From: TPA_inf: Saccharomyces
Lineage: Eukaryota
Direction of reading: 5' to 3'
DNA: 64,000 nucleotides
NCBI GenBank assembly: GCA_000146045.2
Contig: BK006948.2
Coordinates: forward strand, 672,001-736,000
Positions 3,344 to 38,445 of the stretch are shown here, piece by piece. The position numbers and the translations under genes are program-made. Position 1 is the first letter of the stretch. Each line of letters begins with the position of its first letter. The notes under the pieces are model-generated. The model ran no database searches and was not told where the DNA came from. It worked only from the letters and a program-made list of their open reading frames with translations.

Positions 3344-3938
3344 GGGGTTTCAGACATCCAGTAAAGAATAGAAACAAGCAACAAACTTCAGAACTGAAAC
3401 AATGCTTTTTTAAGTTATCGCCTAAATATATTCAAAAAATATAGATATGCTAGATTTTCAATTATACCAAAGTTCATATTTTCAAAATGAATGTTAACAA
3501 AAAGACAAGTTGATGGCCCTTTTTCATAAAGTATGCGTTTAGTTTCAAGTAACGCCGGCTGACGTGGACGATTTATCAAAGAAGTGGTTTTGGAATACTC
3601 TTCTTTTGCAATTAGAAAAAAGGCAAAACTAAATGCAATGCAAGCAGTTGCCCATGGTACTTGAAATTGTGTCTCTGGTTTAAAAGATCTATGATATAAG
3701 TCTTAACTGATCTTATAGTTGTTTTTTTTTGAATTTTCCAAATAGTTTATATGATCATTGAATACGTGCGAGACGTCCGAAAAGGGGCCAGTCAATACCT
3801 ATGAAAAAAAATCATGAATATGTAATAATAAATATTGAATGTAGAATATACATAGTAGAAAAGGAAGTGCTGTAGCGATTGCCATCTCCGCTACAAATTA
3901 CAGTTCGTTACTTTAAGTGTTGATAGGCGTGATTTAAT

Positions 3939-5840
3939 ATGGGACTCCTAAACTCTTCAGATAAGGAAATTATCAAAAGGGCTCTACCAAAAGCGTCGAA
4001 TAAGATTATTGATGTTACGGTGGCTCGACTATACATTGCATACCCTGATAAAAATGAATGGCAGTACACTGGACTTTCAGGAGCTCTTGCTCTAGTAGAC
4101 GATCTTGTGGGGAATACTTTTTTTTTGAAATTAGTTGACATCAATGGCCATAGAGGAGTTATCTGGGACCAAGAATTGTATGTGAATTTTGAATACTATC
4201 AAGACCGTACTTTTTTTCATACATTTGAGATGGAAGAATGCTTTGCAGGTTTATTGTTTGTAGATATTAATGAAGCATCGCACTTTTTAAAGAGAGTTCA
4301 AAAGCGTGAAAGATATGCTAACAGGAAAACTTTGTTGAACAAAAATGCTGTAGCATTAACCAAGAAAGTAAGAGAAGAACAAAAATCTCAAGTGGTGCAC
4401 GGCCCAAGAGGGGAGTCATTGATTGACAATCAAAGGAAAAGATATAATTATGAAGATGTGGACACAATTCCAACTACAAAGCATAAGGCTCCTCCCCCTC
4501 CTCCGCCAACGGCCGAAACATTTGATTCAGACCAAACAAGTTCATTTTCCGATATCAATTCGACAACAGCATCCGCACCGACTACCCCAGCCCCTGCTCT
4601 TCCTCCTGCATCTCCTGAAGTAAGAAAAGAAGAAACGCATCCAAAGCATAGTTTACCGCCTTTACCAAATCAGTTTGCGCCATTACCAGACCCTCCACAA
4701 CATAACTCTCCACCTCAAAATAACGCGCCTTCGCAACCCCAAAGCAATCCATTTCCATTCCCAATTCCTGAAATTCCCTCGACACAGTCTGCAACAAACC
4801 CATTTCCATTTCCGGTACCTCAGCAGCAGTTTAATCAAGCTCCTTCAATGGGCATACCACAGCAGAATAGGCCCCTTCCACAGTTGCCTAACAGAAATAA
4901 TCGGCCTGTGCCACCTCCTCCGCCAATGCGTACCACTACTGAAGGTTCAGGTGTTCGCCTACCTGCTCCTCCACCTCCGCCAAGGCGTGGGCCAGCACCA
5001 CCGCCTCCACCACATAGGCACGTAACCAGTAATACCCTGAATTCTGCCGGTGGAAATAGCCTCCTTCCACAGGCCACTGGAAGAAGAGGGCCAGCACCAC
5101 CACCTCCTCCAAGAGCATCTCGCCCCACACCAAACGTTACGATGCAACAAAATCCACAACAGTACAATAATTCTAACCGCCCCTTTGGATATCAGACAAA
5201 TAGCAACATGTCATCTCCACCCCCTCCTCCAGTGACAACTTTCAATACCCTGACACCACAAATGACTGCAGCAACTGGACAACCTGCAGTTCCCCTTCCT
5301 CAGAATACTCAAGCACCTTCGCAAGCCACAAATGTGCCAGTGGCACCACCACCTCCTCCGGCATCTTTAGGCCAGTCGCAGATACCTCAGTCAGCACCCT
5401 CAGCACCTATTCCGCCAACGTTACCATCGACGACGAGTGCTGCACCACCTCCGCCACCAGCATTCCTAACTCAACAACCTCAATCTGGAGGAGCTCCAGC
5501 TCCACCCCCACCTCCTCAAATGCCAGCTACATCAACATCCGGAGGCGGTTCATTCGCTGAAACTACTGGAGATGCAGGTCGTGATGCACTTTTAGCTTCA
5601 ATTAGAGGGGCAGGTGGCATAGGCGCTTTGAGAAAAGTTGACAAATCGCAGCTAGATAAGCCCTCAGTTTTACTGCAGGAAGCACGTGGAGAATCTGCTT
5701 CACCACCAGCAGCGGCTGGAAATGGAGGCACACCTGGTGGACCTCCGGCTTCTTTAGCAGATGCGTTGGCAGCAGCTTTAAACAAAAGAAAAACTAAAGT
5801 GGGAGCTCATGACGATATGGACAATGGTGATGATTGGTAA
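3939..5840 (+). CDS. LAS17: LAS17/BEE1, WASP homolog and actin-assembly factor, 633 aa
   Basis: ATG at 3939. N-terminal WH1-like region MGLLNSSDKEIIKRALPKASNKIIDVTVARLYIAYPDK..., a long poly-proline central region with repeated GPAPPPPP motifs, a WH2-like segment (RDALLASIRGAGGIGALRKV) and an acidic C-terminus ending DDW. Confidence 0.95.
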   Translation: MGLLNSSDKEIIKRALPKASNKIIDVTVARLYIAYPDKNEWQYTGLSGALALVDDLVGNTFFLKLVDINGHRGVIWDQELYVNFEYYQDRTFFHTFEMEECFAGLLFVDINEASHFLKRVQKRERYANRKTLLNKNAVALTKKVREEQKSQVVHGPRGESLIDNQRKRYNYEDVDTIPTTKHKAPPPPPPTAETFDSDQTSSFSDINSTTASAPTTPAPALPPASPEVRKEETHPKHSLPPLPNQFAPLPDPPQHNSPPQNNAPSQPQSNPFPFPIPEIPSTQSATNPFPFPVPQQQFNQAPSMGIPQQNRPLPQLPNRNNRPVPPPPPMRTTTEGSGVRLPAPPPPPRRGPAPPPPPHRHVTSNTLNSAGGNSLLPQATGRRGPAPPPPPRASRPTPNVTMQQNPQQYNNSNRPFGYQTNSNMSSPPPPPVTTFNTLTPQMTAATGQPAVPLPQNTQAPSQATNVPVAPPPPPASLGQSQIPQSAPSAPIPPTLPSTTSAAPPPPPAFLTQQPQSGGAPAPPPPPQMPATSTSGGGSFAETTGDAGRDALLASIRGAGGIGALRKVDKSQLDKPSVLLQEARGESASPPAAAGNGGTPGGPPASLADALAAALNKRKTKVGAHDDMDNGDDW

Positions 5841-6190
5841 TGGAATGCAAACAAAGATGAAACTACTGTTATAGAAAATATGTAATTTTATGTACTCACT
5901 ATTAATGATCAAAGTAATTGCTCTTTTTATGTATAGTTTCTTTAATCGGAGGAAATTTTGATATAGGTTCAAAGGCGGTCAGTGATTGAATGATCAAGGT
6001 AATAGTCGGGCTACAATGATGGCCATCCCTATGGCCGTTTCAAATGTTTGAGAAAATGATGTATAGTAAATCCTAGATTTTAGCAGTTCGAATCAAAAAC
6101 CCATGTAAAAAGGGTAAATATTTCCTAATTATAATATTTTTGTTTAATTACACATGTAGAACAATAAAAGTATAGAATTTTAGATAGTAT

Positions 6191-6793
<603 letters not shown>

Positions 6794-6871
6794 TTTGTAT
6801 AATTTGTTTATCTAGTATCTTGAGGAAGGAGTGCTAATTCAGAATCTTCATCCTTAATATTGAAGATTGGG

Positions 6872-7261
6872 ATGAGATTACTTCACCATGGTGAATACGG
6901 GACAAAACTAATTGGAGGAAAATGCAGCATAGATGGGAAACTCGGTCACCCTTGCCCGCTAAGCAGAAGACGCAAAAAACATCTGCGCGAAAAAGAAATG
7001 GGTCCACAATATGTACGGATGTATGGTCCCAAAAGAAAAGCCATAATAAGGACAGGAAACCCGGATGACGGCATTAATTTACCTGACACCGGCCGAGGCA
7101 CCTTAACTGCAGCCACAATTTGGTCACGAGCTTACCATTCAAATTATTCTTACCTTGTACGCCCAAAAGTAGTGACTCTTTCTAAGCATCGCGAATTAAT
7201 GACTACTTTTCTTTTATACGTTTTATATGTATGTATATATATAAGTGCCTTCATAAAATAG
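6872..7261 (+). CDS. FYV12: FYV12 (YOR183W), small ORF of unknown function, 129 aa, weak coding support
   Basis: Track ORF 6860..7261 starts with TTG and the first ATG is at 6872. It lies in the RPS30B-SER1 intergenic promoter region. The name is assigned by position only. Confidence 0.35.
   Translation: MRLLHHGEYGTKLIGGKCSIDGKLGHPCPLSRRRKKHLREKEMGPQYVRMYGPKRKAIIRTGNPDDGINLPDTGRGTLTAATIWSRAYHSNYSYLVRPKVVTLSKHRELMTTFLLYVLYVCIYISAFIK
7012..7022. promoter_or_regulatory. Rap1-like site upstream of RPS30B
   Basis: TGTACGGATGT matches the reverse-complement Rap1 consensus TGTRYGGGTGT with one mismatch. It lies about 220 bp upstream of the RPS30B ATG, a typical distance for ribosomal-protein promoters. 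A second weaker copy (TGTATGGTCC) follows directly. Confidence 0.3.
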
Positions 7262-7356
7262 ACAAAGACATTAAGGAGCCTTTGAAATTACTTAATTGAA
7301 CAACACAGGTCTAATTAGTTGATCAATCATCGATTAACCATTAGTGATAAGAAACA

Positions 7357-8544
7357 ATGTCTTTGGAAAGAGAGGAACCACAACATTTCGGAGCAGGGCC
7401 AGCTCAAATGCCTACACCAGTTTTGCAACAAGCTGCTAAAGACTTAATCAATTTCAATGACATAGGTTTGGGTATCGGTGAAATTTCTCACCGTTCGAAG
7501 GATGCCACCAAAGTGATTGAAGACTCTAAGAAGCACTTAATCGAACTGCTAAATATTCCTGACACTCATGAAGTGTTCTACTTGCAAGGTGGTGGCACTA
7601 CTGGTTTTTCTTCCGTTGCTACTAATTTGGCAGCTGCATATGTGGGTAAGCATGGGAAGATTGCACCTGCCGGTTATTTAGTCACCGGTAGTTGGTCTCA
7701 GAAATCTTTTGAAGAGGCAAAGAGATTGCACGTTCCTGCTGAAGTTATCTTCAACGCTAAAGATTATAACAATGGCAAATTTGGTAAAATTCCGGATGAA
7801 TCCCTTTGGGAAGATAAAATCAAAGGTAAGGCTTTCTCATACGTGTACCTATGTGAGAATGAAACTGTTCATGGTGTTGAATGGCCAGAATTACCAAAAT
7901 GTTTAGTAAACGACCCCAACATCGAAATTGTTGCTGACTTATCCAGCGACATTTTGTCTCGTAAGATTGACGTTTCTCAATACGGTGTCATCATGGCAGG
8001 CGCCCAAAAAAACATTGGTTTAGCAGGCTTAACCCTATACATTATCAAGAAATCCATCCTTAAGAATATTTCTGGCGCTTCTGATGAAACATTACATGAA
8101 TTGGGAGTACCAATCACCCCTATTGCATTCGACTATCCAACGGTGGTGAAGAACAACTCAGCCTATAATACAATTCCAATTTTCACTTTACATGTTATGG
8201 ATCTCGTGTTCCAACATATTTTGAAGAAGGGTGGTGTTGAAGCGCAACAGGCTGAAAATGAAGAAAAGGCCAAGATATTATATGAGGCATTGGATGCAAA
8301 TTCAGATTTTTACAACGTTCCAGTGGATCCAAAGTGTAGATCAAAAATGAATGTCGTTTTCACCCTTAAAAAGGACGGCCTTGATGACCAGTTTCTAAAA
8401 GAGGCAGCTGCTCGTCATTTAACCGGTTTGAAAGGACATCGTTCAGTTGGTGGGTTCAGAGCCTCCATCTATAACGCGCTTTCAGTGAAAGCTGTACAAA
8501 ACTTGGTAGATTTTATCAAGGAATTTGCTGAGAAAAACGCTTAA
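7357..8544 (+). CDS. SER1: SER1, phosphoserine aminotransferase, 395 aa
   Basis: ATG at 7357. The protein MSLEREEPQHFGAGPAQMPTPVLQQAAKDLINFNDIGLGIGEISHRSKD... is class V aminotransferase-like. Confidence 0.95.
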   Translation: MSLEREEPQHFGAGPAQMPTPVLQQAAKDLINFNDIGLGIGEISHRSKDATKVIEDSKKHLIELLNIPDTHEVFYLQGGGTTGFSSVATNLAAAYVGKHGKIAPAGYLVTGSWSQKSFEEAKRLHVPAEVIFNAKDYNNGKFGKIPDESLWEDKIKGKAFSYVYLCENETVHGVEWPELPKCLVNDPNIEIVADLSSDILSRKIDVSQYGVIMAGAQKNIGLAGLTLYIIKKSILKNISGASDETLHELGVPITPIAFDYPTVVKNNSAYNTIPIFTLHVMDLVFQHILKKGGVEAQQAENEEKAKILYEALDANSDFYNVPVDPKCRSKMNVVFTLKKDGLDDQFLKEAAARHLTGLKGHRSVGGFRASIYNALSVKAVQNLVDFIKEFAEKNA

Positions 8545-9443
8545 TATCAGCGGAATATGCCTGTAATTTGGTTCAAAGAAAAACTTTTTCAAGTCATATG
8601 TAAGTTTTAAATAAATCAGTTTACGAACATGCACAAGAATAACTTCTCTTCTTTTTCTTGAAATAAAGGCCGAATTATACGATATGATATGAGACGTTCT
8701 AATTACAATACGATACCGTGAGATAAAAATAGCGATATCCTCGTACTCAAAGAAGTCTAATTGTTTTAGCCCGTTGATCAAAAAAATAAAATGTATTTTT
8801 ATTTTTTTGTCATCCAGCTCAAGATCGTAATATTGGCAATTAACAACCGAGCGAGGCACAGGGCAAAGAGAATGTGGGTGAGACTGAACTATCTCTCCCA
8901 ATATATTATACTTTTTTTTGTCGCGTCTACCAATTAAATGAAAACATAATTGGGAATACTTTCCTCTTCTTATATTTTATCTTAACTCGTTTCCGATCTT
9001 CTGATATTCTATTTGTATATGAATAAGAACATTATTGTAATCGAAAGAAGTATCTCTTTTCAAGAGGATTACTTTTCATTGAAAACTTTTGGACGGGCAA
9101 AAAAAAAAAAGCGCCAGCAGGAAGAAAAAAGGAATCTAGTAAAAAATAAAAATTAGGTTTATAAAGTAGTAAGTGAAGTGCAAGAGGGAGCGTTATTGGA
9201 CGATCATATTGTGATCGGATCCCGTTTATTGGTCTTTGATTCAATTTAAAAGAAAAGAAATGTACAGGTTAAACTTCAACATACCAAAAAAAAATTACAA
9301 TGTGGCAATTAAACAGAGAAGAACTAATTCTTTAAAAATAGACTTTCAGAACTATATATTAAAAATAAAAGAAATTTCAAAAAAAAATTTTTAGATTGAT
9401 GTGAGAAGAAGCAGAATATTTTCGTATATAAATTTTCATGTTT

Positions 9444-25334: not shown

Positions 25335-26767
25335 AGAACTTGGTGAATTTTGAAGCATTATTGCGATACACATATGTATATGTTGATAATTGGTGGCTAA
25401 GCTTCTAGTTTGTAGGCTTAAGTAACTTCACTCGTTGGCACTTACGAGCTTGGCATTTAATGGAACAGAAAATAAGCCGTAAATCGGCCCTACTTTAAGT
25501 ATAAGAAATATGCGAAATTTGATATGATCGTTTGAATTACTTTTTGAAAAAGAAAATACCATTAGTAACATACAATATAAGAAGCTCGTCTCCTGGATTT
25601 GGAAATCCACAAAAGATTATCAACAATGCCACGAATAACATAATTGCTTCCCCCTCCTGTTAATTGCTTTAACTCATTATTGCATCGTTAACAGTTGTTA
25701 CTAAATTTGATTTTTGTTTCTCATCATATATGTAATCTTCAAACGCCAGTATAATTATACGCTCGCAACAGCTACCATACATTAATGAACCGATGAAAAT
25801 ATCCCGTTTGATGATAACTGGCAATTAAATGACAGTATTAATTAATAATCAAAGCTGATCTTATATTCCTATAAAAGAGAAGCGTATAAAACACACGTGG
25901 ATTGGGGGTGCTTTATACGTAAACTGTGATTTCAGTAATTTTCGCTGTAAGATCAAAGTAAAGACACATTCCCTTATATGTAAAGTTCAAATTCATTGTT
26001 CCACTAATAGACCGTCAACTTTTCTTTTGGATTTTCAGCCCGAACAGGTTGCTTATTATTAACTTCCTTACAACAAGGTACAGTCAGTGCATTATATAGA
26101 TCTATACAACCATGTGCCTTTGTGTTTTCTAAGGCTATACTGAAAATAAATTGGTAATTTATAATTTCTATCTTCACGCGCTTTCTCACTAACAAGACTT
26201 GACCTCTCAAATAAGTGGCGCAGATGCTCTAGAAAAGGTTTCTTATCAAATAAGTTTTGCTCTTTAATCGCACAATGCAATGCAAGTTATTTTTTTTTTT
26301 TTGATTTAATGACTTTCGATTTCCTCTCATAGGCAACCGGTACTTATCATAAGTACGTAATAAGAAAAGTATGTCGCAGGACGTCATAAGCTCAGACTTG
26401 AACAAAAGAGTAACAAAATCGCCTCCACCTAATTTTCAGCCCTACTAGAGCCTGATAGGATATCGGCACTGAAGCTGATAAGAGAATCAATGAAAATATC
26501 ATCCTCAACAGAAATACTGAAAAGAAGCGGTAGTTTTTTTTTCTTGTTACAATTATCAGCCAAACAAAAACAGTGATCTGAATCGTCAATCAAACATTAG
26601 TGGAAGAATGAAATAATCGAAATGACCTCTATATCCTGTACGACCAACAAGCTTAATAGTAGTGTTTCCTGGGACTAAAGAGTGTGTTTAATTATCTCGA
26701 ATTTTAATACTAGCGAAAGATCTTGAATGAACACTAAGTATGATCATTTTATTAGGTTTTTTGCTCA

Positions 26768-28567
26768 TTAGGCAATTTGTTTTTCACTGGAAGTAGAGGA
26801 TTCCTTTTCATTATCTTTCTGATGAACAATTTCAAACACTTTTGTGTTTTCTGAACTAGTTTTTGTCAACTCAGGTAGTTCATCATCGGAGCTCTCAGGT
26901 TTGTATTCGTGTCCACTTGTGAAGCATTCGCCTAATGTGTAAGCACGGATTTCTTCTTCAGAAATTTCACTGTATGGAACCATGCCCTTCTTCCTTGCTT
27001 CTTCGTCGGTAAACGCACCGTAGTAATCTTTGTCATCATGTTTGACAGTAATTTTGAATGGGAAGAGGAGGCATAGTCCCCAATAGACGAAAAAGGAAAT
27101 CAAAAAGGAGAAGAAAGAATCACCATAGAAAAAATTTATAATACCAGTGTTGTGGAAATAGTCATTATTGACTTCCCAAGCGATACCAGGTAGACCGGGA
27201 GCCATACCACACACCCAGGCAACGATAGCTCTCCAGTTGACACCCTTGGTAAAATAGTATTCACCCTTTAGAACAAAGGCATTGGTAACGGAGTATTGTC
27301 TCTTCCTGATGAGGAAATTATCACAGATCATGACAGTGATAATAGGTGTCATTACGACACCGAAAGAGCTCATAACAGTCAAGAAAGTAGAAGAAGAGTT
27401 GTAAAAGTTCCATGGCAAACAGGCCCAGGAGACGCATGCGGCAAAAATAGCACCTCTCTTAATATCAACATATTTCGGTAATAAACCAGCCAAATCCATA
27501 CCACTGGCAAACCCACAGTTGGAGATGGTATATGAAATTTGAGACATTACAAAACAAAAACCACAGAAGAATGTAGCTGCACGCGCGCCTGCAGAATAGT
27601 TAGTTGTCAACCAGTTGTCAAAGATGTCCATAGGCATCCAAAATGTTTGACCGTATAATTTTTCACAAGCAGAAGCACCAATGATACCGAATACTGGGAT
27701 CAAGGTTGCTGGTATTAGTAAAGCAACTATAGTACCAGTCCAGATAGCGCAATTAGAGGAACCAAATCTGGAGAAGTCACTTTGATTGGTACAGCCTGGA
27801 GAAACAGAACCGTACCAGTACGAGATCGTATAAACCCAAGCCCAAGCCTTTTTAGAGCCAGTAACTGTGGAATGAGTAGAAGTGAACAAGTCACCAACAC
27901 CATGTGCGCTCTTAGTTAAGTAAATTACCATACCCAACATGGCGAAGAAAGTACCAACACACGACCAAATTAAAATATAGTTCATATGGTATGGCTTCAT
28001 AAAGTAACAGAACGCGGTAAGGATATGGAAGATAATGAAGCCGATCAATTCCTTGGTGGTCATGGCAACTTTCGAGGACAAAGTATTGGGCAGATGCAAA
28101 TAGTGGTGAGACCAAGAATCTAATATCATGTTTACACAAAGCCCACCTAACCAAGCGTTGGAACCATAATAGACAATACTCATCAATATTCTGATAATGA
28201 TACCAAGAGCTGAACCGTAAATCCCAAAGACGAATCTTTGAGCTAGAGTGAAGCCGACCTTCCAGTCATAGCCAGGACAAGAGTTGGCTAAAGCAAACAG
28301 GATGGTCAACAAATCAGCAATAATAAACGCACCGATGGTCTCTGAGTAACTTAACCCAACAGTTAATGCAGACGAACCGCCTATCCACATACCAACGTTG
28401 AAGGACAGAACACCCCAATACGCAAAATTAGACCAAAACCCCCACGTTTGATTAACAGACTTGATAGGTTGCAAATCAGGGTTCCTTAAAAAATTCACGG
28501 AGGCCCTATTTTTAACAGGAATTTCCAAAAATCTCAAAGCCCTGGAGATTCTCGTACCGAAACTCAT
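26768..28567 (-). CDS. THI72: THI72, NCS1-family thiamine/nucleobase transporter, 599 aa
   Basis: ATG at 28567..28565. The polytopic membrane protein MSFGTRISRALRFLEIPVKNRASVNFLRNPDLQPIKSVNQTWGFWSNFAYWG... is uracil/allantoin/thiamine permease-like. Confidence 0.9.
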   Translation of the reverse strand: MSFGTRISRALRFLEIPVKNRASVNFLRNPDLQPIKSVNQTWGFWSNFAYWGVLSFNVGMWIGGSSALTVGLSYSETIGAFIIADLLTILFALANSCPGYDWKVGFTLAQRFVFGIYGSALGIIIRILMSIVYYGSNAWLGGLCVNMILDSWSHHYLHLPNTLSSKVAMTTKELIGFIIFHILTAFCYFMKPYHMNYILIWSCVGTFFAMLGMVIYLTKSAHGVGDLFTSTHSTVTGSKKAWAWVYTISYWYGSVSPGCTNQSDFSRFGSSNCAIWTGTIVALLIPATLIPVFGIIGASACEKLYGQTFWMPMDIFDNWLTTNYSAGARAATFFCGFCFVMSQISYTISNCGFASGMDLAGLLPKYVDIKRGAIFAACVSWACLPWNFYNSSSTFLTVMSSFGVVMTPIITVMICDNFLIRKRQYSVTNAFVLKGEYYFTKGVNWRAIVAWVCGMAPGLPGIAWEVNNDYFHNTGIINFFYGDSFFSFLISFFVYWGLCLLFPFKITVKHDDKDYYGAFTDEEARKKGMVPYSEISEEEIRAYTLGECFTSGHEYKPESSDDELPELTKTSSENTKVFEIVHQKDNEKESSTSSEKQIA

Positions 28568-31427
28568 AATGGTGTAATGCTAGAGTTTTTTTTGCTTGAT
28601 AGTATATCAGATATGAGAGCAATAGATGATGATACAAGTTCTACAGTGGAAAATAACATGGTACACGCTCTTGGCAACATTGAAATTACAGCTCTCATAT
28701 ATAAAAAATGGAAAGAAAAAAGAGAAGAAAAAAGAGAAGAAATGAATTCTATTATGATAGCGAATGCAAAATATTCGTCCACATTCTTTTATCTATTGTC
28801 TTCCTTCTTTCTGTGCAACTACCAGAAAAAGCTATTTCATCTAGTCGAGTAGACTAATTAATGAATTATCTCGTCTTCCATATAAATTAATAAGGCAACC
28901 AGCAGGAGACGCCTATTGTTAAGCGTATTACGAAACCTGCGGATCTGTGCGCTATTGTTATGCCAGTGAAGGAGCCTGTCATCATGCACTCATGTGCCCG
29001 CGCGCGCGCTTCTGTGACTACAACTTATTGTAGGGCGTAGTACACTGACGCCTAGCGCTCAAAATACACATATGCAGTGTGGCCGACTATGCGATGAAGC
29101 GGAACAGTCTATCTTATGTGAATGGTTGCAAAATGCCGTTATATGGATACTACGGTGCGAACACGTATTTATAATAGGATAATCTTGTATCTATTCGTTT
29201 TATGCTACTAGTTCTAACCTTTAGGAAGTGTCCTTCACAATATCAGCCCTACATGCAGTGGTCTTCGTAAATCCTGTGAGGTTTTGTCTCATTTCTCTAT
29301 GCTGGAAGGGCTTCGTAGAAGATTCCGCAAAATAATGGAATTGAAGCCCTGCGCCAAGCAAGCCTCACGAGGATCGTCGGTTCTGAGACGTAACCACGCT
29401 CTTGAATCTTGTTTATGTGATCAGCAATGACGTCTTCGGTGGTAATACCATTTCATTCCGGAAAAGATGAGTTTGTAGTCGGTTAGGGAGTACCGTGGCG
29501 TCCTTTCCTATTTCTGCAAATTTGCTGTCCATGTTGGCAACTACTCTCAAAGGTGGCAACTGCTTAGTAAATAGCCATATCGCTCAGAGATACATATCAA
29601 GAAACTCTAGCCAGATGATCACGAATCCCGAAGCGATGTAATTTTCCGTGAGGCAGTCCTGAATCAGGCCGTAGATTGACTATTAGCATCTCTTTTTGAG
29701 TATGCTAAGAAGTAGAGGGCTACCTTATTCCCACACACTTTTTACCACGGGCGAAACATTTATTTTCAAGTCCCAGCACAGTGATGGGATGAAGTCCAGG
29801 ATGCGTCATACGGTCCTATGGCAAACTTCGGGGAAGGTTTAATATGCTGCTTTCAAGCAGGATTAACGGTAATCAACTCCCTAGGCAAATTGGCTCAACT
29901 CTGCCTATCTATCCACTGAGGATTTCAAATCCACCGAATGGGAGAATATGTCAGTGTCCATTTTGGAGTAAGGTATGAGTTCTTTTTTCGTCAGCTTTTC
30001 TTCTATATCTTACAATTGCTTATCTTAAACCACCGATATTTTTGCAGTCCCTTCATCATCGAGCACAATGGCCTATACGTTGAAATTTTGGTTTTGGTTT
30101 GAAGCCCACTCATCTTGGCATCGCTGACGTGTTTTCTTCCAAGATTTAAAGAGGACTACTCGGTGCAGGTGGACATCTCGAATGAATATGTTACCTAGCT
30201 TGATCTCCTCCATCAAATTACAACCTTTTTGCAGTGAATTTTGATACATGGATTTCGGAGCTTAAACACGTATTAACTGAAATTCAGGCATGGCGAGAAA
30301 ATTCCCATCAGAACTTGAAGAATACTCTAAATACTACTGAGATAAACCGAGAGGTGACGTGAAATTCTTCCCAGATGTTCAATATATTATGAAAAACCAT
30401 CCAGCTGAATTACCTCATTTGCAGATCAATTTCAAAGGCTTCGGTTCGGGGATAATGAGACATTCTGTCCAAAATGTCCCATTTATTACAGCCTCGGAAT
30501 TAAGGTGCTTGATACTGTTCTCATAAACATGTGACTGCATTGGTGGTTGATGGAGTAATGATACCACTGAGCGGTTTCAAATGCTAAAAGTCTTTTGAAG
30601 CTATCACAGTTACCCTCGGATTTGGCAGTCTAATTCAAGTGCCGTAGATACCGTGGCATTGAAATATTCGAGGCAGTTATTAGCAATGCTCAAGAGGATA
30701 TTATGCGGAGTGCTACCCTATTTGCATTTTTATGATGTCATTGACGATGCGAGAAAGTCTAACATGATTAGATTGGCACCTGCACATTATATATTGCGTT
30801 TCTGAACTTGTACATTGTAATGAATGTGTTTAGGAAACCGATGAGTAAATCATAAACCAAGGTGGGATCTCATTATCAATTTTTTTTTCATATCAGTTAC
30901 AATAAATATAACTTGAATAATTTTTCAATGATTGTCGAATTTCTAAAACATTCACACATTCTGAGAATAATAGAGCAAGGTTTTCGAAGATACAAACCCC
31001 ATTAGCACCCTAATTTGTTGTACTTGTGTTTTTTCACCACTAGCACATCGTTTTACGATTCTTGAAAGGCTAGATGGAATAGTGCAGAGCCCAAAGGATA
31101 ATATCCATAGTTAAACAGCCGTTCTTTGCGACCTGAATGATTGCTTACTTTGATTTTGTTGCATTACAGGCTTTGGTAATAGCAAAGTTTGTCGCCAAAT
31201 CTGTTTTACCGTTAGAAAAGCTACTTCTCTTCAAGACGTCATTCTCAGCTTGACCTACAGAATGCTACTTATCCAACATATCACGTAAAATCTAAGATAT
31301 ACTATATGATAGAAGCGCAGATTACCGGATCTAAAATAATTGTCTGGGTATTTATTCATGTGGGTTATTTATCCAAGCAAGAATTTGACCCAACGTGCTC
31401 TATCTTGTTTGATTCACTAAGGTTTCT

Positions 31428-31665
31428 ACTGTGAATTCTACGAATTTTGTGATAATGGTAGGGTTTCCATTCTTTTCAAAGGCTGTAATATTAGGTATAC
31501 AGAATATACTAGAAATTCTCCTCCAGGATATAGAAATCCCCAAAATGGAATCGGTAGTTCAACAAATAATATTACGATTATTTCTCAATCTTTATGCCAT
31601 CTTCTTTCACCGCATGTAATAGTATACTAGTAACACTAATACTATTTAACAGATGACATTTTAGA
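31428..31665 (-). repeat. Solo Ty1/Ty2 delta LTR. It is divergent, internally deleted and 3'-truncated, and reads as minus orientation
   Basis: The plus strand reads tgtgaatt...ggtagggtttccatt...ctgtaatattaggtatacagaatatactagaaattctcctccaggatatagaaatcc...agtatactagtaacactaatact..., collinear with the reverse complement of the Ty2 LTR in this window. No PBS is adjacent. Confidence 0.6.
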
Positions 31666-31763
31666 GTTGGAGGAGAACTTCTAGTATATTCTGTATATAT
31701 AATATTATAGCCTTTATCAAAAATGGAATCCAAACAATTATCTCAAAATTCACCAATATCTTA
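31666..31763 (+). repeat. Delta LTR fragment, the 3' ~100 bp (U5 end), plus orientation, abutting the previous delta
   Basis: ggaggagaacttctagtatattctgtatatataatattatagcctttatcaaaaatggaatccaaacaattatctcaaaattcaccaatatctta matches the canonical 3' end of delta (GAGGAGAACTTCTAGTATAT...AAAAATGGAATCCCAACAATTA...). Confidence 0.6.
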
Positions 31764-32058
31764 CGTTGATTCTGTTGGAACGAGAGTAATTAATAGTGAC
31801 ATGAGTTGCTATGGTAACAATCTAATGCTTACATCGTATATTAATGTACACCTCGTATACGTTTAAGTGTGATTGTGCCTATTGCAGAAGGAATGTTAAA
31901 CGAGAAGCTCAGACCATACTGAAGCTGTGTTAAAGACCTATTAGTTGAACATGATATGGTAGGTACATATATGAGGAATATGAGTCGTCACATCAATGTA
32001 TAGTAACTACCGGAATCACTATTATATTGGTCATGATTAATATGACCAATCGGCGTGT

Positions 32059-32063: not shown

Positions 32064-32396
32064 TGAAAAGTGGGTGAATTTTGAGATAATTGTTGGGATT
32101 CCATTTTTAATAAGGCAATAATATTAGGTATGTAGAATGTACTAGAAGTTCTCCTCAAGGATTTAGGAATCCATGAAAGGGAATCTGCAATTCTACACAA
32201 TTCTATAAATATTATTATCATCATTTTATATGTTAATATTCATTGATCCTATTACATTATCAATCCTTGCGTTTCAGCTTCCACTAATTTAGATGACTAT
32301 TTCTCATCATTTGCGTCATCTTCTAACACCGTATATGATAATATACTAGTAACGTAAATACTAGTTAGTAGATGATAGTTGATTTTTATTCCAACA
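32064..32396 (-). repeat. Ty2 3' LTR (delta), 333 bp
   Basis: By eye it is identical to the 5' LTR sequence. It is bounded by the PPT on its inner side. Confidence 0.9.
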
Positions 32397-32418
32397 TACC
32401 ACCCATAATGTAATAGAT

Positions 32419-35400
32419 CTAATGAATCCATTTGTTAGTTAATAGTTTAAATGTTTTTATCGGAAGAGGTTTTGTCATCACATCAGCAATGTTCTTATTG
32501 GTCTCGATGTAGTATACGTATAAATTATTACCTGATACTTCATCTCTAAGTCTCATTGCCTTCGTGCCAAAAAATCTGTTTCTAAATTTCTCTTCATTTG
32601 TAGACTTAATTATACTGATCGTTGATCTACTATCAGTAAGTAAGCCTTTAATAATTGGTTTCTTGTTAAGTTCTTGCACAAGGTGACTGAGGTTATTCAA
32701 TAGCGGTATAGCTTCACTGACTGCGTGTATTTCTGCTTCTGTAGTTGAAGTGCATGTTAACGAAGCCTTTGTCGACTTTCCTCCAATCACTTTTCCGTTG
32801 AGTAGGAAAATGTTACCAATTTGTGACTTGTAATATGGTTGGTTACCATATGAAGCATCGCTTATTGCGACTAGTTTATTATCTGGCTTGGTAGGTTTGT
32901 TTTTGTGCCATATTAATTGTTTATCTCTAGTGTCCCACATGAATTGTATTAACTCATATGTCATGTCTAAAACTTGCCTAGAGGGGAATAGTATATGTTG
33001 AGCAAGTGTGTTGATGTAGTATAGTAAGTCAAATCTAAATTTATATCCAACATATGAAGCTAGACCAATCAACTTTTGCATTTCATGCACTTTCTCTTTG
33101 TATTCATCTTCATCTATTTCTAGTTCATCCTGGTCTATATAATGACCTGGTTGACCTGGAGCTCTAAGTTTCTTTCCTTTTGGGTTCAAAGGTACGTTTA
33201 GTTTGGGTAATTTTTCTGTCAAGGATTTTTCCATACCTAATTTCATGTACTTGCTTCTTTGATATTTGATCTCTAATCCAAGTATGTCGTACTGAATTTC
33301 GTTATCACCTTCACCCAGATTTATTATCTTTGTATCGTATTGTTTCTTGAGTGTTGTTATGATTTTCTTATTTGCATTTAAGTCTTTGCTAAATAAAATC
33401 ATGTCGTCAACGAATAAGCAAATTGTTACTTGACTATTCTTAAATACGCATGACCATCCGCGAACTTCTTGCATGTCGCAACAATTTATTAAATATGATT
33501 TAATGGTTTCATACCAGTTTGCACCACTTTGTTTCAAACCATAGAGTGATTTTCTCAAACGTAGTAATTTATCATTCAAACCTAAATGTGGTGGAGGTCT
33601 TATGTATAATTCTTCTTTGATATCAGCATATAAGTAAGCAGAGGATATGTCCAGCTGTGTGATATAATAGTCGTTGTCTAATGCGATTGACAGTGACGTC
33701 ATCAGTGCATAGTGATGTACGGTATTGGATTGCATATCAGAATCATATGTATCGGGGTGTTGAATGTCGCCTCTTGCAACAAATCTAGCTTTGTGTGTAC
33801 CATCACGTTTCTTGTTAAATATAAACATTGAGTTTATTACTTTTTTAGGATCTATGTCATTTCTATCATAATATTTGTTTGTATCCCAAGTGTTCATTTT
33901 CAATAGTTGGCTAATTTCTTTATGATAAGCTTCAACATATCTGTCTTTTTCTTTGTTGTCTTTATTATAAGTAATTGCTTCATCATATCTTAAGGTCGTT
34001 CGAACTGGTTTGATCGATTTCACTCCTTTTATTGCTGCAATTAAATTTATGCGTTTCTTCGATCTTGGTGGTTCCAGACTTCTCATATTCTTATTATTCC
34101 ATGTGTCTCGGGATACCTCAATTTCAGTTTCATTATCTTCTAATGATCTTTTCTTACTTTTGGTAGTAGTCAGAACATTAGAATCATCCATACCACCCAA
34201 ACTGGAATTAGTCTGACGAGAGTGTATGTGTGGAATATCTTTTGAAACATCAGAAGTGTCCGTAGGAGATTGATGGGTTAAGTCAGGAAGTGGGAGGTCG
34301 TCAAGAATAGAATCAGCCGTAACATTTTTTGAGGATTTGTCAGGCATTATATTAGGAGTCGCATGGTCAGAAGATCGATATTCTGGCGGATCCGTATCAA
34401 TGGAGGGTGTATTATCACATGCAGCCTTTGTTTCTATGGAGATGATGGGAGTAGTGGATTCACTGTTGGACGAACGGTCATCTATTGAGGGCGTACTATT
34501 TGTAGTCCTGTATTTGATATTTGTATCACTATTTCGTTGAATATATGGTTCCTCCGTACCACCCAAACGTGTAGTTTTGATGTTTTCAAGTCCATAATTA
34601 ACTCTATCCTGTGAGGTCAAATCAATCATATCGTTGGGACTACCAGGTCGCTTTTGGTTTCGTGCAGTGAAGGTAGACGAGTGTCTAGGTGAAGTAGTAT
34701 CTGATTCAATGGTACCACCCATTTCGGTACTCTCTTTATTAATGATATGGGGTGTACGAGATCGTATAGTAGATGGAAGAATATTGTATTCAGATATGTC
34801 GGCATCAACTTCTTTTGGTGCACGTACCTTTTGGACTGGTTCCTTGTCTAATTGTAAAGGGTTCAATGATTGGGACGAGAAATCGTTCACTAGAGGATCA
34901 GAGTTTATTTCAATCTCCGATTGATAGTCATGATCAGATTCTGTATTTTGATCATATGACTGCTCCGTTTCATTTTGTTCAATAAAAGATTGGTTATGGG
35001 CTGTTAAACGATTGAGATCATCATCAAAAGTGAGTGTATCGTAGTCGAACTGGTCCAATTTCGTTTGCTTGTTTTGTAATATAACGTAATTGGTAGTATC
35101 TACTGTCTTTTTTAAGGATGGAAGATAGATAATATAGCCATAAGAGTTTCGTGATGGATGTAAGGCGTAACCTGGAATGCCACGAGGATGTATTTTCGAG
35201 TCGGGATTATGGTTGTTAACTATAACCGGTTGACCGAAAGGTAGTATAGTAGTAATGTCCAGTCCAGCTAAACCTGCATGTTGTCTTGCAGATTTATCGT
35301 TTTTTGGTGAGACTAATGAATTTCTGATTATAGTAGAAAATTCGACTGCTGAGAACCATAGATGATTTGGTAGACCACTGCAATGAAGCAGTGTGCGACA

Positions 35401-36459
35401 ATCGTTTAATAAAGTACGATTTAATCGTTCAGCGACACCGTGTGCTCTAGAATCTGCCGTGGTTGTATAGCATGCAGTAATACCTCTGTTCGTAAAGAAC
35501 TTATGAAGAGTTTTGTTAGTGTACTCGGAGCCACGATCCATCTGGATAACTAGAACGCGAGCATTGAATTGGTTCTTAATAAATGCTAATATCGATGTAA
35601 AAACATTGAGGATAGATTCTTCACGACGGTCGTGTAATGGGTACACCCATTGGAATCTGGTTTTCTCATCTGTAAACGATATAAAGTAAGAAGGTGCACT
35701 TTTCGGTAAGTGATGTACAGGACCAAATATATCGGTATGCAAGTACTGAAAAGGCTCATATGATTCTTGGTACTTTAGTCGTGATCCTTTGACATGCCTA
35801 TGTTTCGTGCTTTTGCCGATTAGACAGTCAGGACATTGATATGTGCTAGCGTTAGACCATTCAATATCCGATTCTTTCAAATATGTAACTGCATTCTTCT
35901 TAAGAGACTTCTGAATACTTCGGAAGTTAGCATGTCCAAGCATTCGATGTATTAACGGATATGGATATTTATTTACGCTTTTGCTTTTGTTGACGTTGTT
36001 TATTGTTAGCTTTGAAATGTGCGAAGGAATTAGGTATTTTTTAGATAACCAGTAAAAGTCTCCATGTTTGACTATGGGAGCTAGTACTGTACCATCCGAT
36101 CTTTCTAAAGTGTTTCTGGTAAAGCAGGCAGTAATATTTTGGTTAGCCAGCTCACTCAAACTTAATAGATCATAGGCTATGTTTGGTGTGTGTAGTGCTT
36201 TTATTGATGTTTTGGTGCCGTTCTGAAAGTTGAAGTGAAGATTACCAATGGCATTTATAGGAATGTCTTGTTTTTGAGCATCGACTATGTTTATTTCAGA
36301 ATTGGGTGTTGCATGGTGTAAATAATGGGCTGATCTGACAAGCGTTTGCGAAGCTCCTGAATCAATAAGAAGGTGATCAGGTAGTTCGTCATTCGAGTCT
36401 ATTGTGCGTGTTGGCTTAGATTCTTTCTGTTGCTGGCCTAAGACTAAGTTCGTTGTCAT
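32419..36459 (-). CDS. Ty2 TYB (Pol: protease, integrase, reverse transcriptase, RNase H), expressed as a TYA-TYB fusion by +1 frameshifting
   Basis: The 1346-codon frame carries the integrase zinc finger (HANFRSI...CPDC), RT motifs ([10 protein letters not shown]) and an RNase H region. The CTT-AGG-C frameshift heptamer lies at 36442..36436. Confidence 0.9.
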
Positions 36460-37732
36460 CGCTTAAGTATTGTGATGAAACGGTTGATTCATTAATGTGA
36501 TCATTGTTCACCCTTGAGAATTTACTGGATGTAGCAATATTGTGAGCTTTTGCTGCTCTTGGTTTTGAACTATTTGTTCTATGATAATTACGAGTTGTAA
36601 CCTTCGTGTTAGTCGTGTTTGGAGATGTGCGAGAAACATTTTTGTATTCGCTGTGTTGTTTGTATTGGGACGGTTTATTTAGATTCATGATTTTATTTTC
36701 GTCATATATTAATTGAATTTCAGCGAATAATTGGGAAAGTTTCATGTTCGTTTTGGTACGATATTGATTACGTAGGTATTTGAAGTCACCGGATAGACCT
36801 TTAAGTATTAGTTGACAGGCCAATCTGTCGCTAACATTGATATTGTTTTCTTTTAGCCTTTGAATGATCGTGCTGACTGTAATTTCAAATGTATCAGCAG
36901 ATGTACTTCCGTTGTACTCAAGGTTGGCAAGAGCTATCCAATCTTTTAATTCTTGATTGTTAGTTTGCATTTTGGACACACTTTTACAAAGGACTGTAAG
37001 GATGTCAGAATAATTAATTTCTAAAATTTGTTTTACCCATGTTGGCAATAAATGAAATGGGGCAAATGCTTGGAAGGTATTGTATATATACGCATGTTCT
37101 TCATAAGTCATTTGTCTTTTGATTTCACCCTGGTCATTTGGAATAATGTCACCGAGATTAGAGTTCTTCAAAAATCTGATGTAAAATTTAACCCATGTAG
37201 AAAAGTTTTCTTCTGATGTTAAAGTGTGTGGTGGTAAGACATTATTTCTCACCTTTGTCTTAGCTTGAGGTACTTCAGAGTGTTGATCCTGTGAACCGAT
37301 TGGATCAGGTGAGGAAGTACTCAGCGGTGGGATATACTGTGGCAGCGGATAGTGTGGGTCCGGTTGATAATACGCAGGTGACGTTTGATAATGTGAACAC
37401 GTCATCATAGATGGTTGTTGGTAATGTGCCCAGTTAGAAGCCATAGCTTTGTTTGGGGTCATCATGCCGTGCTGTTGGTACTGTCCATTCTGTGGAGGTG
37501 GTACTGAAGCAGGTTGAGGAGAGACATGATGATGGTTCTCTGGAACAGCTGATGTCCCAGGTGTTGTCTCTTGTTGAGAATTAACCTTAGTGGAATCTCT
37601 ATCAAATTCCGGTAAATTGGAAGCTGAAACGGCTAACGGATCTTGATTTGATGGGACTTCCTTAGAAGTAACCGAAGCATAGGCGCTACCATGAAAAGTG
37701 GGTGAATTTTGAGATAATTGTTGGGATTCCAT
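36416..37732 (-). CDS. Ty2 TYA (Gag), 438 aa; the ATG lies inside the 5' LTR
   Basis: The track ORF begins 40 codons upstream (MMIII...). The authentic start is MESQQLSQ, with the ATG at 37732..37730, as in canonical Ty elements. Confidence 0.85.
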
Positions 37733-38024
37733 TTTTAATAAGGCAATAATATTAGGTATGTAGAATGTACTAGAAGTTCTCCTCAAGGATTTAGGAATCC
37801 ATGAAAGGGAATCTGCAATTCTACACAATTCTATAAATATTATTATCATCATTTTATATGTTAATATTCATTGATCCTATTACATTATCAATCCTTGCGT
37901 TTCAGCTTCCACTAATTTAGATGACTATTTCTCATCATTTGCGTCATCTTCTAACACCGTATATGATAATATACTAGTAACGTAAATACTAGTTAGTAGA
38001 TGATAGTTGATTTTTATTCCAACA
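37692..38024 (-). repeat. Ty2 5' LTR (delta), 333 bp
   Basis: The plus strand ends ...gatttttattccaaca (reverse complement of TGTTGGAATAAAAATC). It is followed internally by the PBS. Confidence 0.9.
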
Positions 38025-38190: not shown

Positions 38191-38262
38191 AAGAATTAGC
38201 AGCGCCGTGGCGCAGTGGAAGCGCGCAGGGCTCATAACCCTGATGTCCTCGGATCGAAACCG
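38191..38262 (+). tRNA. Initiator tRNA-Met (anticodon CAT); a Pol III terminator T-run follows at 38264..38270
   Basis: AGCGCCGTGGCGCAGTGGAAGCGCGCAGGGCTCATAACCCTGATGTCCTCGGATCGAAACCGAGCGGCGCTA. It has an A-box (TGGCGCAGTGG), a B-box (GGATCGAAACC) and the anticodon loop CTCATAA. The sequence matches yeast tRNAi-Met, with the A1:U72 feature of initiators. Confidence 0.9.
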
Positions 38263-38445
38263 AGCGGCGCTAATTTTTTTACCTTTGATCCTTTATTTTT
38301 CTTAATTTCCTTGTCAGTCTGACTATTATTGTTAATACATAGAATGAAATGTTATTTATAAAAAAAAAAGTTTTGGAGAAAAGTAGGATGATAGGATTTG
38401 AAGGTAGACTATGACCTTTGTGTTAACTTGGACAATCGTTTTATC

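Follow-up and report, generated by a model that had tools for sequence, protein, structure and literature searches.

The long block free of open reading frames upstream of THI72 on chrXV of S. cerevisiae (positions 28853–31427 of the window, the whole 64,000-nucleotide stretch of DNA that was analysed) is very probably non-functional debris of a DNA-level, non-processed segmental duplication from chrXII. Homology to and collinearity with the parental locus, disabling lesions, an empty site in S. uvarum, a twin locus at NRT1 and neutral divergence were all observed. The initial annotation had left the block unassigned; from its sequence it can be assigned to a family, reading as non-processed pseudogene relics of TOP3 and BNA5 and not as a transposon or RNA gene. 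This accounts for an unusually long, GC-normal and ORF-free "intergenic" region in a well-studied genome without a new element, and documents the acquisition of the thiamine transporter paralogue THI72. Little is added to the published record: BNA5 and ERF2 relics next to THI72, an unoccupied site in S. uvarum, the LTR and tRNA surroundings of the insertion, and an architecture that recurs as a twin at NRT1. Annotators can use these details, as can work on neutral decay or on what becomes of segmental duplications, and no concept is changed by them.

Composition and reading frames of the block

The initial annotation had described 28853–31427 as lacking any ORF of 60 aa or more, and a scan of both strands to position 31430, with ORFs running from ATG, GTG or TTG to stop, agreed with this, the longest being 58 aa. 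Stops number 41–61 per approximately 858 codons in all six frames, near the random expectation for the composition of the block, and the longest ORF stayed below 60 aa in 4.1% of mononucleotide and 2.5% of first-order Markov shuffles (1000 shuffles). The missing long ORFs are only mildly unusual and, since shuffled sequences reproduce them this often, the ORF desert by itself is weak evidence. The block had also been noted as not very AT-rich, which is borne out by a GC content of 40.2% overall and 43.1% in 28853–30250, compared with 37.7% across the window and 31.9% in the proximal promoter of THI72. Coding-like GC together with a random stop frequency in all frames is found because the TOP3 and BNA5 relics have drifted neutrally. 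The placement of the block between the THI72 promoter and a delta cluster was likewise correct, with THI72 at 26768–28567 on the minus strand and delta fragments from 31433.

Two protein-like peptides quoted from the plus strand do exist there, in frames +1 and +0, and both fall within the BNA5 relic (BNA5 CDS nt 414–767, window 30206–30538). The sole protein-level BNA5 match in this interval lies in frame +2 (ITSFADQFQRLRFG versus Bna5 ITSFAHQFPDILVG; weak alone, E 1.1), and the quoted peptides are therefore probably stretches that happen to be open in decayed coding DNA, not remains of the original frame.

Gene relics flanking THI72

About 75% of the block is collinear with the THI7 neighbourhood of S. 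cerevisiae chrXII (L004, used as the parent; its Thi7 cluster carries the source name Thi7p, and the sequence ends at ARV1/YLR242C), in which intact TOP3 and BNA5 encode 656 and 453 aa. The order BNA5(+), TOP3(−), intergenic DNA, transporter(−) matches that of the parent, strands included. The part nearest the transporter, 28568–29138 on the minus strand, is the THI72 upstream region, homologous to the chrXII THI7–TOP3 intergenic DNA by blastn, nhmmer and alignment, with the intergenic homology spanning 28610–29139. With blastn, window 28917–26780 aligned to L004 9666–11788 at 80.7% identity, and with nhmmer L004 8315–9951, comprising TOP3 and intergenic DNA, matched 30126–28610 (E 8.9e-105). 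A promoter element of approximately 40 bp (~28868–28905) is kept upstream of all seven THI7-family genes compared in the alignment. THI72 (YOR192C) is the only surviving gene of the duplicated segment; its protein is 87% identical to Thi7, and the exactly matching protein (P0001) is named "Thiamine transporter THI72" by its source.

The relic of TOP3 (YLR234W, DNA topoisomerase III) occupies 29139–30225 on the minus strand, as identified by nhmmer, tblastn and a published entry. Its main segment, CDS nt 913–1971 (aa 305–657), lies at 30112–29139 (nhmmer E 6.5e-61) and a second fragment, nt 385–488, at 30225–30121 (nhmmer E 1.5e-5); nt 1–384 are absent, nt 489–912 form an internal deletion, and stops and frameshifts are many. 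In tblastn, Top3 aa 339–626 aligned at 31% identity (E 2.5e-21) through in-frame stops and frame changes. The TOP3 pseudogene at THI72 is already catalogued as SACE0Op7, a YLR234W pseudogene at chrXV 701139–702125 C with a relative length of 0.54, 14 stops and 10 frameshifts (Lafontaine & Dujon 2010, BMC Genomics 11:260, Table S1; PMC2876123). Locus, strand and parent are the same, the published interval corresponding to window 29139–30125 and our main segment to 29139–30112. The SACE0Op7 entry, however, ends at that main segment, omits the nt 385–488 fragment (30121–30225), the adjacent BNA5 relic and the ERF2 relic 3′ of THI72, and draws no link between the THI72 and NRT1 loci; neither the BNA5 nor the ERF2 relic at the THI72 locus is in the table of Lafontaine & Dujon.

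The relic of BNA5 (YLR231C, kynureninase), at 30206–30862 on the plus strand by nhmmer and tblastn, retains CDS nt 414–767, 850–1000 and 1189–1356 (nhmmer E 6.1e-11, 1.7e-14 and 7.1e-15), while nt 1–413 are absent and there are internal deletions. The BNA5 portion reached E 1.6e-18 and 1.8e-14 in the nhmmer search with L004, and Bna5 aa 283–336 and 400–452 matched the relic in tblastn (E 3e-9 and 2e-6). The distal part of the block, 30863–31427 (565 bp, no strand assigned), had no direct match to the chrXII parent. Within it, window 31234–30903 matched its orthologue in S. mikatae, L001 7573–7917 (nhmmer E 1.5e-4). A portion of that S. mikatae region in turn aligns to the 3′ flank of BNA5 on chrXII (profile search E 1e-16, single-sequence search E 1.7e-9), and by transitivity through S. 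mikatae the distal part is probably decayed BNA5–CDC42 intergenic DNA. CDC42-like tblastn matches at 30186–30436 and 30886–31077 (E 0.05–0.45) were dismissed as chance, the DNA there aligning to BNA5 or to nothing. No trace of EST1 was found in the block.

Outside the block but still part of the duplicated segment, a relic of ERF2 (YLR246W, DHHC palmitoyltransferase) lies directly 3′ of THI72 at 26095–26720 on the minus strand. Its DHHC-region remnant, 26649–26479, was found by tblastn with an Erf2 fragment (E 5.7e-9), and its stitched translation matched Erf2 of PDB 8hfc_A (E 5.2e-7); it was alone in doing so, as phmmer searches of PDB with the TOP3 and BNA5 relic translations gave no meaningful match. 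Pfam found no domain in the six frames of the block, with only a chance DUF5920 match at E 0.17, no Top3 domains in the correct relic frames and KYNU_C in the BNA5 frames only at E 0.12; profile HMMs are too insensitive for relics so decayed. In 2004 Lafontaine et al. reportedly described duplicated, non-processed pseudogenes and gene relics from the intergenic regions of yeast (Gene 335:1), and the present relics are like that class in their similarity to a functional paralogue, their many stops and frameshifts and their long "intergenic" location, with no essential difference.

Neutral decay and arrival of the segment

The block evolves without selective constraint. Its divergence from strain L003 is 1.24%, compared with 1.33% at third codon positions of THI72, so that the between-strain divergence equals the synonymous rate. 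All four features of a non-processed pseudogene relic were found (CDS similarity, disabling lesions, collinear neighbours and no constraint), and an mRNA intermediate, i.e. a retrocopy, is excluded because genes on opposite strands and promoter DNA were duplicated together.

It is very improbable that the block is, or holds, a functional non-coding element kept for that reason, whether a lncRNA (SUT/CUT), a long-range regulatory region of THI72 or a replication origin. Such a role would fit the conserved promoter element and the low divergence of 28568–28934 from strain L003 (one mismatch in 355 bp of THI72 upstream DNA), and pervasive transcription of yeast intergenic DNA is common. Against it, the divergence at the synonymous rate is joined by an identity of only ~54% between the S. 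cerevisiae and S. mikatae TOP3 relics beyond ~29100 and by lineage-specific deletions among the relic copies. Transcription, if present, needs no sequence conservation and leaves the origin of the DNA unchanged. No ACS match and no relevant tandem repeat was seen in the block, and Rfam returned nothing there, whether at its gathering threshold or relaxed to E up to 1, so that a structured non-coding RNA gene finds no support among described families; the S. mikatae orthologue is too diverged for covariation. Still harder to credit is an old, decayed retrotransposon interior (Ty3, Ty4, Ty5 or an extinct family), for which the position in a Ty/tRNA hotspot between LTR remnants would speak: a degenerate solo delta LTR on the ULS1 side (25502–25769, plus strand; nhmmer versus Ty LTR, E 4e-12 to 6e-14) and, towards the tRNA and PEX27, clustered delta LTR fragments (31433–31765, no strand assigned; nhmmer versus Ty LTR), with a full Ty beyond it (32064–38023). 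These LTR fragments all lie outside the block, however, just as the initial annotation had seen no LTR termini or Ty internal motifs within; the six-frame Pfam scan contained no RVT, rve or gag domain at E up to 1, tblastn and nhmmer with the gag/pol proteins and internal DNA of the Ty1/2-type element in the window gave no match under the same limit, and chrXII homology explains the 75% of the block already described. Among the three options offered earlier, a decayed pseudogene thus stands, in the form of the TOP3 and BNA5 relics, and a transposon interior falls, with no similarity to the Ty sequences compared and no LTR inside; a non-coding transcription unit finds no support in Rfam.

Debris of a chrXII duplication also agrees with the distribution across species. 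In S. mikatae the block occupies the same site and includes relics of TOP3 and BNA5, although plain blastn reached no further than the first 530 bp upstream of THI72 and the rest became visible with nhmmer, which was also relied on in place of a four-way MAFFT alignment that put the BNA5 5′ segment on TOP3 across the deletion. In S. uvarum (L009) and the genome of a close relative (L010), ULS1, tRNA-Met and PEX27 are present without transporter or relics; in L009 a solo LTR was confirmed to lie between ULS1 and the tRNA. An intact gene at the syntenic site of a sister species had been suggested as the sign of a pseudogene relic; S. mikatae has the same relics and the site in S. uvarum is empty, and that test does not apply because the relics are paralogous copies of chrXII genes. 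A syntenic unitary pseudogene was likewise rejected, S. mikatae having only relics and S. uvarum and its close relative lacking the whole segment.

The transporter tree separates THI7, THI72 and NRT1 of S. cerevisiae from the S. uvarum copies. One sequence (L012) considered as the S. mikatae THI7 locus was rejected, being uvarum/eubayanus-like with a JC distance of 0.04 to S. uvarum TOP3, and for this reason the TOP3 tree cannot place the duplication relative to the cerevisiae/mikatae split. Dating rests on presence or absence at the syntenic site, by which the chrXII-derived segment carrying THI72 arrived after the S. uvarum/eubayanus split and before S. cerevisiae and S. mikatae diverged. 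THI71/NRT1 and THI72 are listed by Gordon, Byrne & Wolfe (2009; PMC2675101) among genes gained after the WGD, which makes THI72 a recent, non-ancestral addition in the S. cerevisiae lineage; the main text searched mentions neither "relic" nor TOP3 and hence describes no co-duplicated neighbour relics. No published description of a THI7/NRT1/THI72 segmental duplication was found in the literature searched.

The NRT1 locus and the origin of the segment

The segment has a twin at the NRT1 locus (L005), to which some 5 kb align in all (nhmmer; window 30885–28781 to L005 7283–9562 and 28780–26095 to L005 9802–12449), and TOP3 and BNA5 relics are found there as well. The relics at NRT1/YOR071C are catalogued as SACE0Op4 (YLR246W), SACE0Op5 (YLR234W) and SACE0Op6 (YLR231C) (PMC2876123), and there the ERF2 relic, the transporter, the TOP3 relic and the BNA5 relic follow one another in the same order and orientation as at THI72. 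They are less decayed, the TOP3 relic being 70% identical to the parent as opposed to 59% at the THI72 locus. The NRT1 locus also differs in having an LTR fragment at the TOP3/BNA5 junction and other deletion end-points, and in having no tRNA gene within the 21.8 kb of L005.

We infer that both chrXV copies descend from a single rearranged intermediate, that the initial duplication was a large one and that the segment was transposed by LTR-mediated ectopic recombination. A chrXII stretch from at least BNA5 (YLR231C) to ERF2 (YLR246W) would have been copied, and deletions would have stripped the copy of most genes (EST1, YLR238W–YLR245C and the 5′ portions of TOP3 and BNA5), leaving a remnant of approximately 5 kb with BNA5 relic, TOP3 relic, promoter, transporter and ERF2 relic, which is now found twice on chrXV, at NRT1/YOR071C and at THI72/YOR192C. 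The copy at THI72 lies in the Ty-target zone upstream of tRNA-Met, between ULS1 and PEX27 and with LTR remnants on both sides. Selection has kept only the transporter and its proximal promoter, and the TOP3 and BNA5 copies, redundant with the intact chrXII genes, have drifted neutrally. We lean towards this reading, with THI72 and NRT1 as twin copies of one remnant of one chrXII duplication (at least 16 genes by systematic name, YLR231C–YLR246W) that was re-duplicated within chrXV, one copy entering the Ty/tRNA-Met hotspot probably by LTR-mediated ectopic recombination.

Two independent chrXII duplications, each carrying TOP3, EST1, BNA5 and ERF2 and each decaying separately, are an unlikely source of THI72 and NRT1. 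In both chrXV loci an ERF2 relic lies within ~120–200 nt of the transporter stop codon (its DHHC remnant starts at 160 nt for NRT1 and ~197 nt for THI72), whereas on chrXII ERF2 is presumably eight genes downstream of THI7, going by systematic names (YLR237W, YLR246W), the L004 sequence ending at YLR242C. Both loci also lack EST1, the window and L005 align continuously over the whole 5 kb, and the three TOP3 relics form one clade at 95% bootstrap, a value possibly inflated by long-branch attraction. Separate duplications are favoured, on the other hand, by the differing end-points of the TOP3/BNA5 junction deletions, the deleted intervals in the three relic copies being 4340–7803, 3718–7971 and 3610–7987 in L004 coordinates; given these and the LTR fragment at the NRT1 junction, EST1 may have been lost independently in each copy. 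The protein tree gives a clade of THI72 and NRT1 a bootstrap of only 39.5%, and the catalogue of Lafontaine & Dujon notes no pattern of disabling mutations common to both TOP3 pseudogenes (PMC2876123 Table S1, column 13). An excess of shared derived substitutions between the THI72- and NRT1-locus TOP3 relics is within reach of transition bias and rate heterogeneity.

If THI72 and NRT1 are indeed copies of one remnant, their two relic sets would, together with the S. mikatae orthologue, constitute a dated and internally controlled set of neutrally evolving sequences. The relic sets also hint at a faster decay of the S. cerevisiae copy at the THI72 locus.

Remains of TOP3 and BNA5 upstream of THI72

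The ORF-free, GC-normal block at window 28853-31427 is debris of TOP3 (YLR234W) and BNA5 (YLR231C), co-duplicated with a thiamine transporter gene from chromosome XII. THI72 (YOR192C) itself is a minus-strand ORF of 599 aa at 26768-28567, 100% identical to proteins publicly named S. cerevisiae Thi72p, and the loci of Thi72 homologues were retrieved with their flanks for comparison. One of these, L004, is the THI7 (YLR237W) locus, the members of its protein cluster being named S. cerevisiae Thi7p by their sources; from Pfam domains and the known arrangement of chromosome XII we take its gene order to be CDC42, BNA5, EST1, TOP3, THI7, FAR10, LIP2 and VPS34 onward. In blastn, the DNA upstream of THI72 gave collinear matches in the THI7 promoter, the TOP3 3′ end and BNA5. 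The more sensitive nhmmer aligned L004 8315-9951, the 3′ part of TOP3 and the TOP3-THI7 intergenic region, with 30126-28610 (E 8.9e-105). For the coding sequences, TOP3 nt 913-1971 matched 30112-29139 (E 6.5e-61) and nt 385-488 matched 30225-30121 (E 1.5e-5); BNA5 nt 414-767, 850-1000 and 1189-1356 matched 30206-30538 (E 6.1e-11), 30542-30692 (E 1.7e-14) and 30685-30849 (E 7.1e-15). Protein alignments cover Top3 aa 339-626 (E 2.5e-21) and, for Bna5, aa 283-336 (E 3e-9) and 400-452 (E 2e-6), and they contain stops and frame changes. Both relics keep the parental order and strands, TOP3 on the minus and BNA5 on the plus.

EST1 and both its adjacent intergenic regions left no trace in the block at E up to 10, and the relics also lack TOP3 nt 1-384 and BNA5 nt 1-413; the copy has thus lost some 3.5 kb of the parental sequence by deletion, at a junction near 30206-30225. 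Direct homology to the parent covers 75% of the block. The distal 565 bp (30863-31427) have no direct match to the parent and are orthologous to an S. mikatae segment, part of which matches the BNA5 3′ flank.

The initial annotation had described an ORF desert whose composition was not of the very AT-rich kind, and both points hold: the longest ORF overlapping 28853-31430 is 58 aa, with none of 60 aa or more, and GC is 43.1% in 28853-30250 versus 37.7% in the whole window. Stops number 41-61 in about 858 codons in all six frames, roughly the random expectation. The desert is real but just mildly improbable, since only 2.5-4% of sequence shuffles lack an ORF of 60 aa or more. The protein-like peptides quoted earlier do occur at plus-strand 30243-30530, within the first BNA5 relic segment; the sole protein-level BNA5 match in this segment is in another frame than the peptides and is weak alone (E 1.1). 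Of the three origins first considered, a decayed pseudogene proved correct, the block being the remains of TOP3 and BNA5. The interior of an old transposon is unsupported, as the block holds neither internal repeats nor LTRs and shows no similarity to the proteins or internal DNA of the neighbouring Ty. A non-coding transcription unit likewise finds no support, with no Rfam family in the block even at E up to 1. The six-frame scan of the block detected no Pfam domain, and the ARS consensus had no match in it.

An ERF2 relic and the NRT1 locus

Immediately 3′ of THI72, a relic of the DHHC-palmitoyltransferase gene ERF2 (YLR246W) occupies 26095-26720 on the minus strand. Its translation, stitched from two frames, matches palmitoyltransferase Erf2 (PDB 8hfc_A, E 5.2e-7), and an Erf2 fragment maps to 26649-26479 (E 5.7e-9). 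The convergent ULS1-THI72 spacer is long (1.4 kb) because this relic sits there. On chromosome XII, ERF2 presumably lies eight genes downstream of THI7, judged by systematic names alone, L004 reaching only YLR242C.

The NRT1 locus on chromosome XV (L005), where members of the protein cluster are named Nrt1p by their sources, can be aligned with about 5 kb of the window, 30885-28781 with L005 7283-9562 and 28780-26095 with L005 9802-12449. The latter alignment extends about 670 bp beyond the THI72 stop codon, a stretch that contains the DHHC remnant, and the remnant starts within about 160-200 nt of the transporter stop codon at both loci. It is likely, if not proven, that both loci descend from one rearranged intermediate, because the odd transporter/ERF2 junction and the loss of EST1 are common to both and the three TOP3 relics form a clade with 95% bootstrap. 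Against a single intermediate count the TOP3/BNA5 deletion end-points, which differ between the copies, and a delta-LTR fragment at L005 7624-7732, exactly at the BNA5/TOP3 relic junction of the NRT1 locus. A Ty that inserted or excised there may have helped to remove EST1 from that locus. Derived substitutions shared by the TOP3 relics of the THI72 and NRT1 loci are in excess by no more than transition bias and rate heterogeneity would allow.

Insertion site and dating of the duplication

On S. mikatae chromosome 15, THI72 is found between ULS1 and PEX27, and the 4.1 kb gap upstream of it, without called genes, contains TOP3 (E 4.7e-49) and BNA5 relics. In S. uvarum (L009) and a close relative, ULS1 is followed by a spacer of less than 1 kb with a tRNA-Met and then by PEX27, with neither transporter nor relics at this site in either; a solo LTR was confirmed between ULS1 and the tRNA in L009. 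Given relics and THI72 in S. mikatae and an empty site in S. uvarum, the segment entered this Ty/tRNA hotspot once the uvarum lineage had branched off, but earlier than the split from mikatae. In the protein tree, THI7, THI72 and NRT1 of the S. cerevisiae lineage cluster separately from the THI7 of S. uvarum and the two tandem paralogues of that gene, a grouping that agrees with the classification of THI71 and THI72 as post-WGD gains (Gordon et al. 2009). The tandem THI7-like genes on S. uvarum chromosome 12 (L007 6978-8774 and 10001-11797), flanked by genes for a glutaredoxin-domain protein and a ribosomal protein of the S8 family, are 91-92% identical to that species' own THI7 and have no TOP3 or BNA5 relics beside them; they are an independent, parallel thiamine transporter expansion in that lineage.

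A degenerate solo delta LTR at 25502-25769, which separates the 3′ end of ULS1 from the ERF2 relic, and delta LTR fragments from 31433 on the other side show that the duplicated segment is bracketed by LTR remnants. LTR-mediated ectopic recombination would be a reasonable, if hypothetical, mechanism for its movement. The full-length minus-strand Ty at 32064-38023 (TYA and TYB ORFs of 478 and 1346 aa), located upstream of the tRNA-Met at 38201-38272 and followed by PEX27, is a young insertion, since the 300 nt compared in its two LTRs are 100% identical; no full Ty is found at this position in another S. cerevisiae strain (L003) or in S. mikatae. Elsewhere in the window, the H/ACA snoRNA snR36 is a full-length Rfam match (188.7 bits) at 8685-8866 on the minus strand. 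Together, snR36, the tRNA-Met, THI72, the Ty and PEX27 place the window on S. cerevisiae chromosome XV.

A published pseudogene catalogue already contains the core of this finding: SACE0Op7, in Table S1 of Lafontaine & Dujon 2010 (PMC2876123), lies at chromosome XV 701139-702125, C strand, with YLR234W as best match, relative length 0.54, amino-acid divergence 0.60, 14 stops and 10 frameshifts. With an offset of 672,000, based on the snR36 coordinate, this is window 29139-30125 versus 29139-30112 for our main TOP3 segment; the 29139 boundary is identical to the base, which supports the offset. The same table has YLR246W, YLR234W and YLR231C relics at 458.8-464.0 kb, beside NRT1; for the THI72 locus it has neither a YLR231C nor a YLR246W entry. 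What the present analysis adds is minor: the BNA5 and ERF2 relics next to THI72, the empty site, the LTR context of the segment and the twin layout of the THI72 and NRT1 loci.

Relic decay and THI72 promoter elements

Divergence was measured against L003, a strain without the Ty, and amounted to 1.24% in the block, 1.33% and 0.80% at third codon positions of THI72 and ULS1, and 0.28% in the proximal promoter (28568-28934). The TOP3 relics of S. cerevisiae and S. mikatae are just ~54% identical. On these comparisons the relic DNA evolves neutrally, and constraint looks confined to the proximal promoter. When TOP3 relic decay was compared (window 29139-30112 versus S. mikatae L001 8440-9400), derived sites made up 39% at the S. 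cerevisiae THI72 locus, 28% in the S. mikatae orthologue and 25% at the NRT1 locus, with JC distances to the parent of 0.60, 0.40 and 0.36, respectively. The greater divergence at the S. cerevisiae THI72 locus may reflect faster decay there or be partly an alignment artefact.

The constrained proximal promoter includes an element of ~40 bp at about 28868-28905 (alignment A1), ~300-340 bp upstream of the ATG and with the gene-strand consensus TTTCCTGCAGGTTGCCTTATTGATTTATATGGAAGA. It is conserved in all seven transporter promoters that were compared: those of THI72, THI7 and NRT1 in S. cerevisiae, of THI72 in S. mikatae, and of THI7 and its two paralogues in S. uvarum. It probably acts as a control element of the THI regulon. 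The THI72 promoter also contains a short purine-rich tandem repeat, AAAAAAGAAAAG, in about three copies at 28704-28742. The L003 alignment has 12 gap columns somewhere within 28568-28934, which could, at a guess, be a copy-number difference in this repeat.
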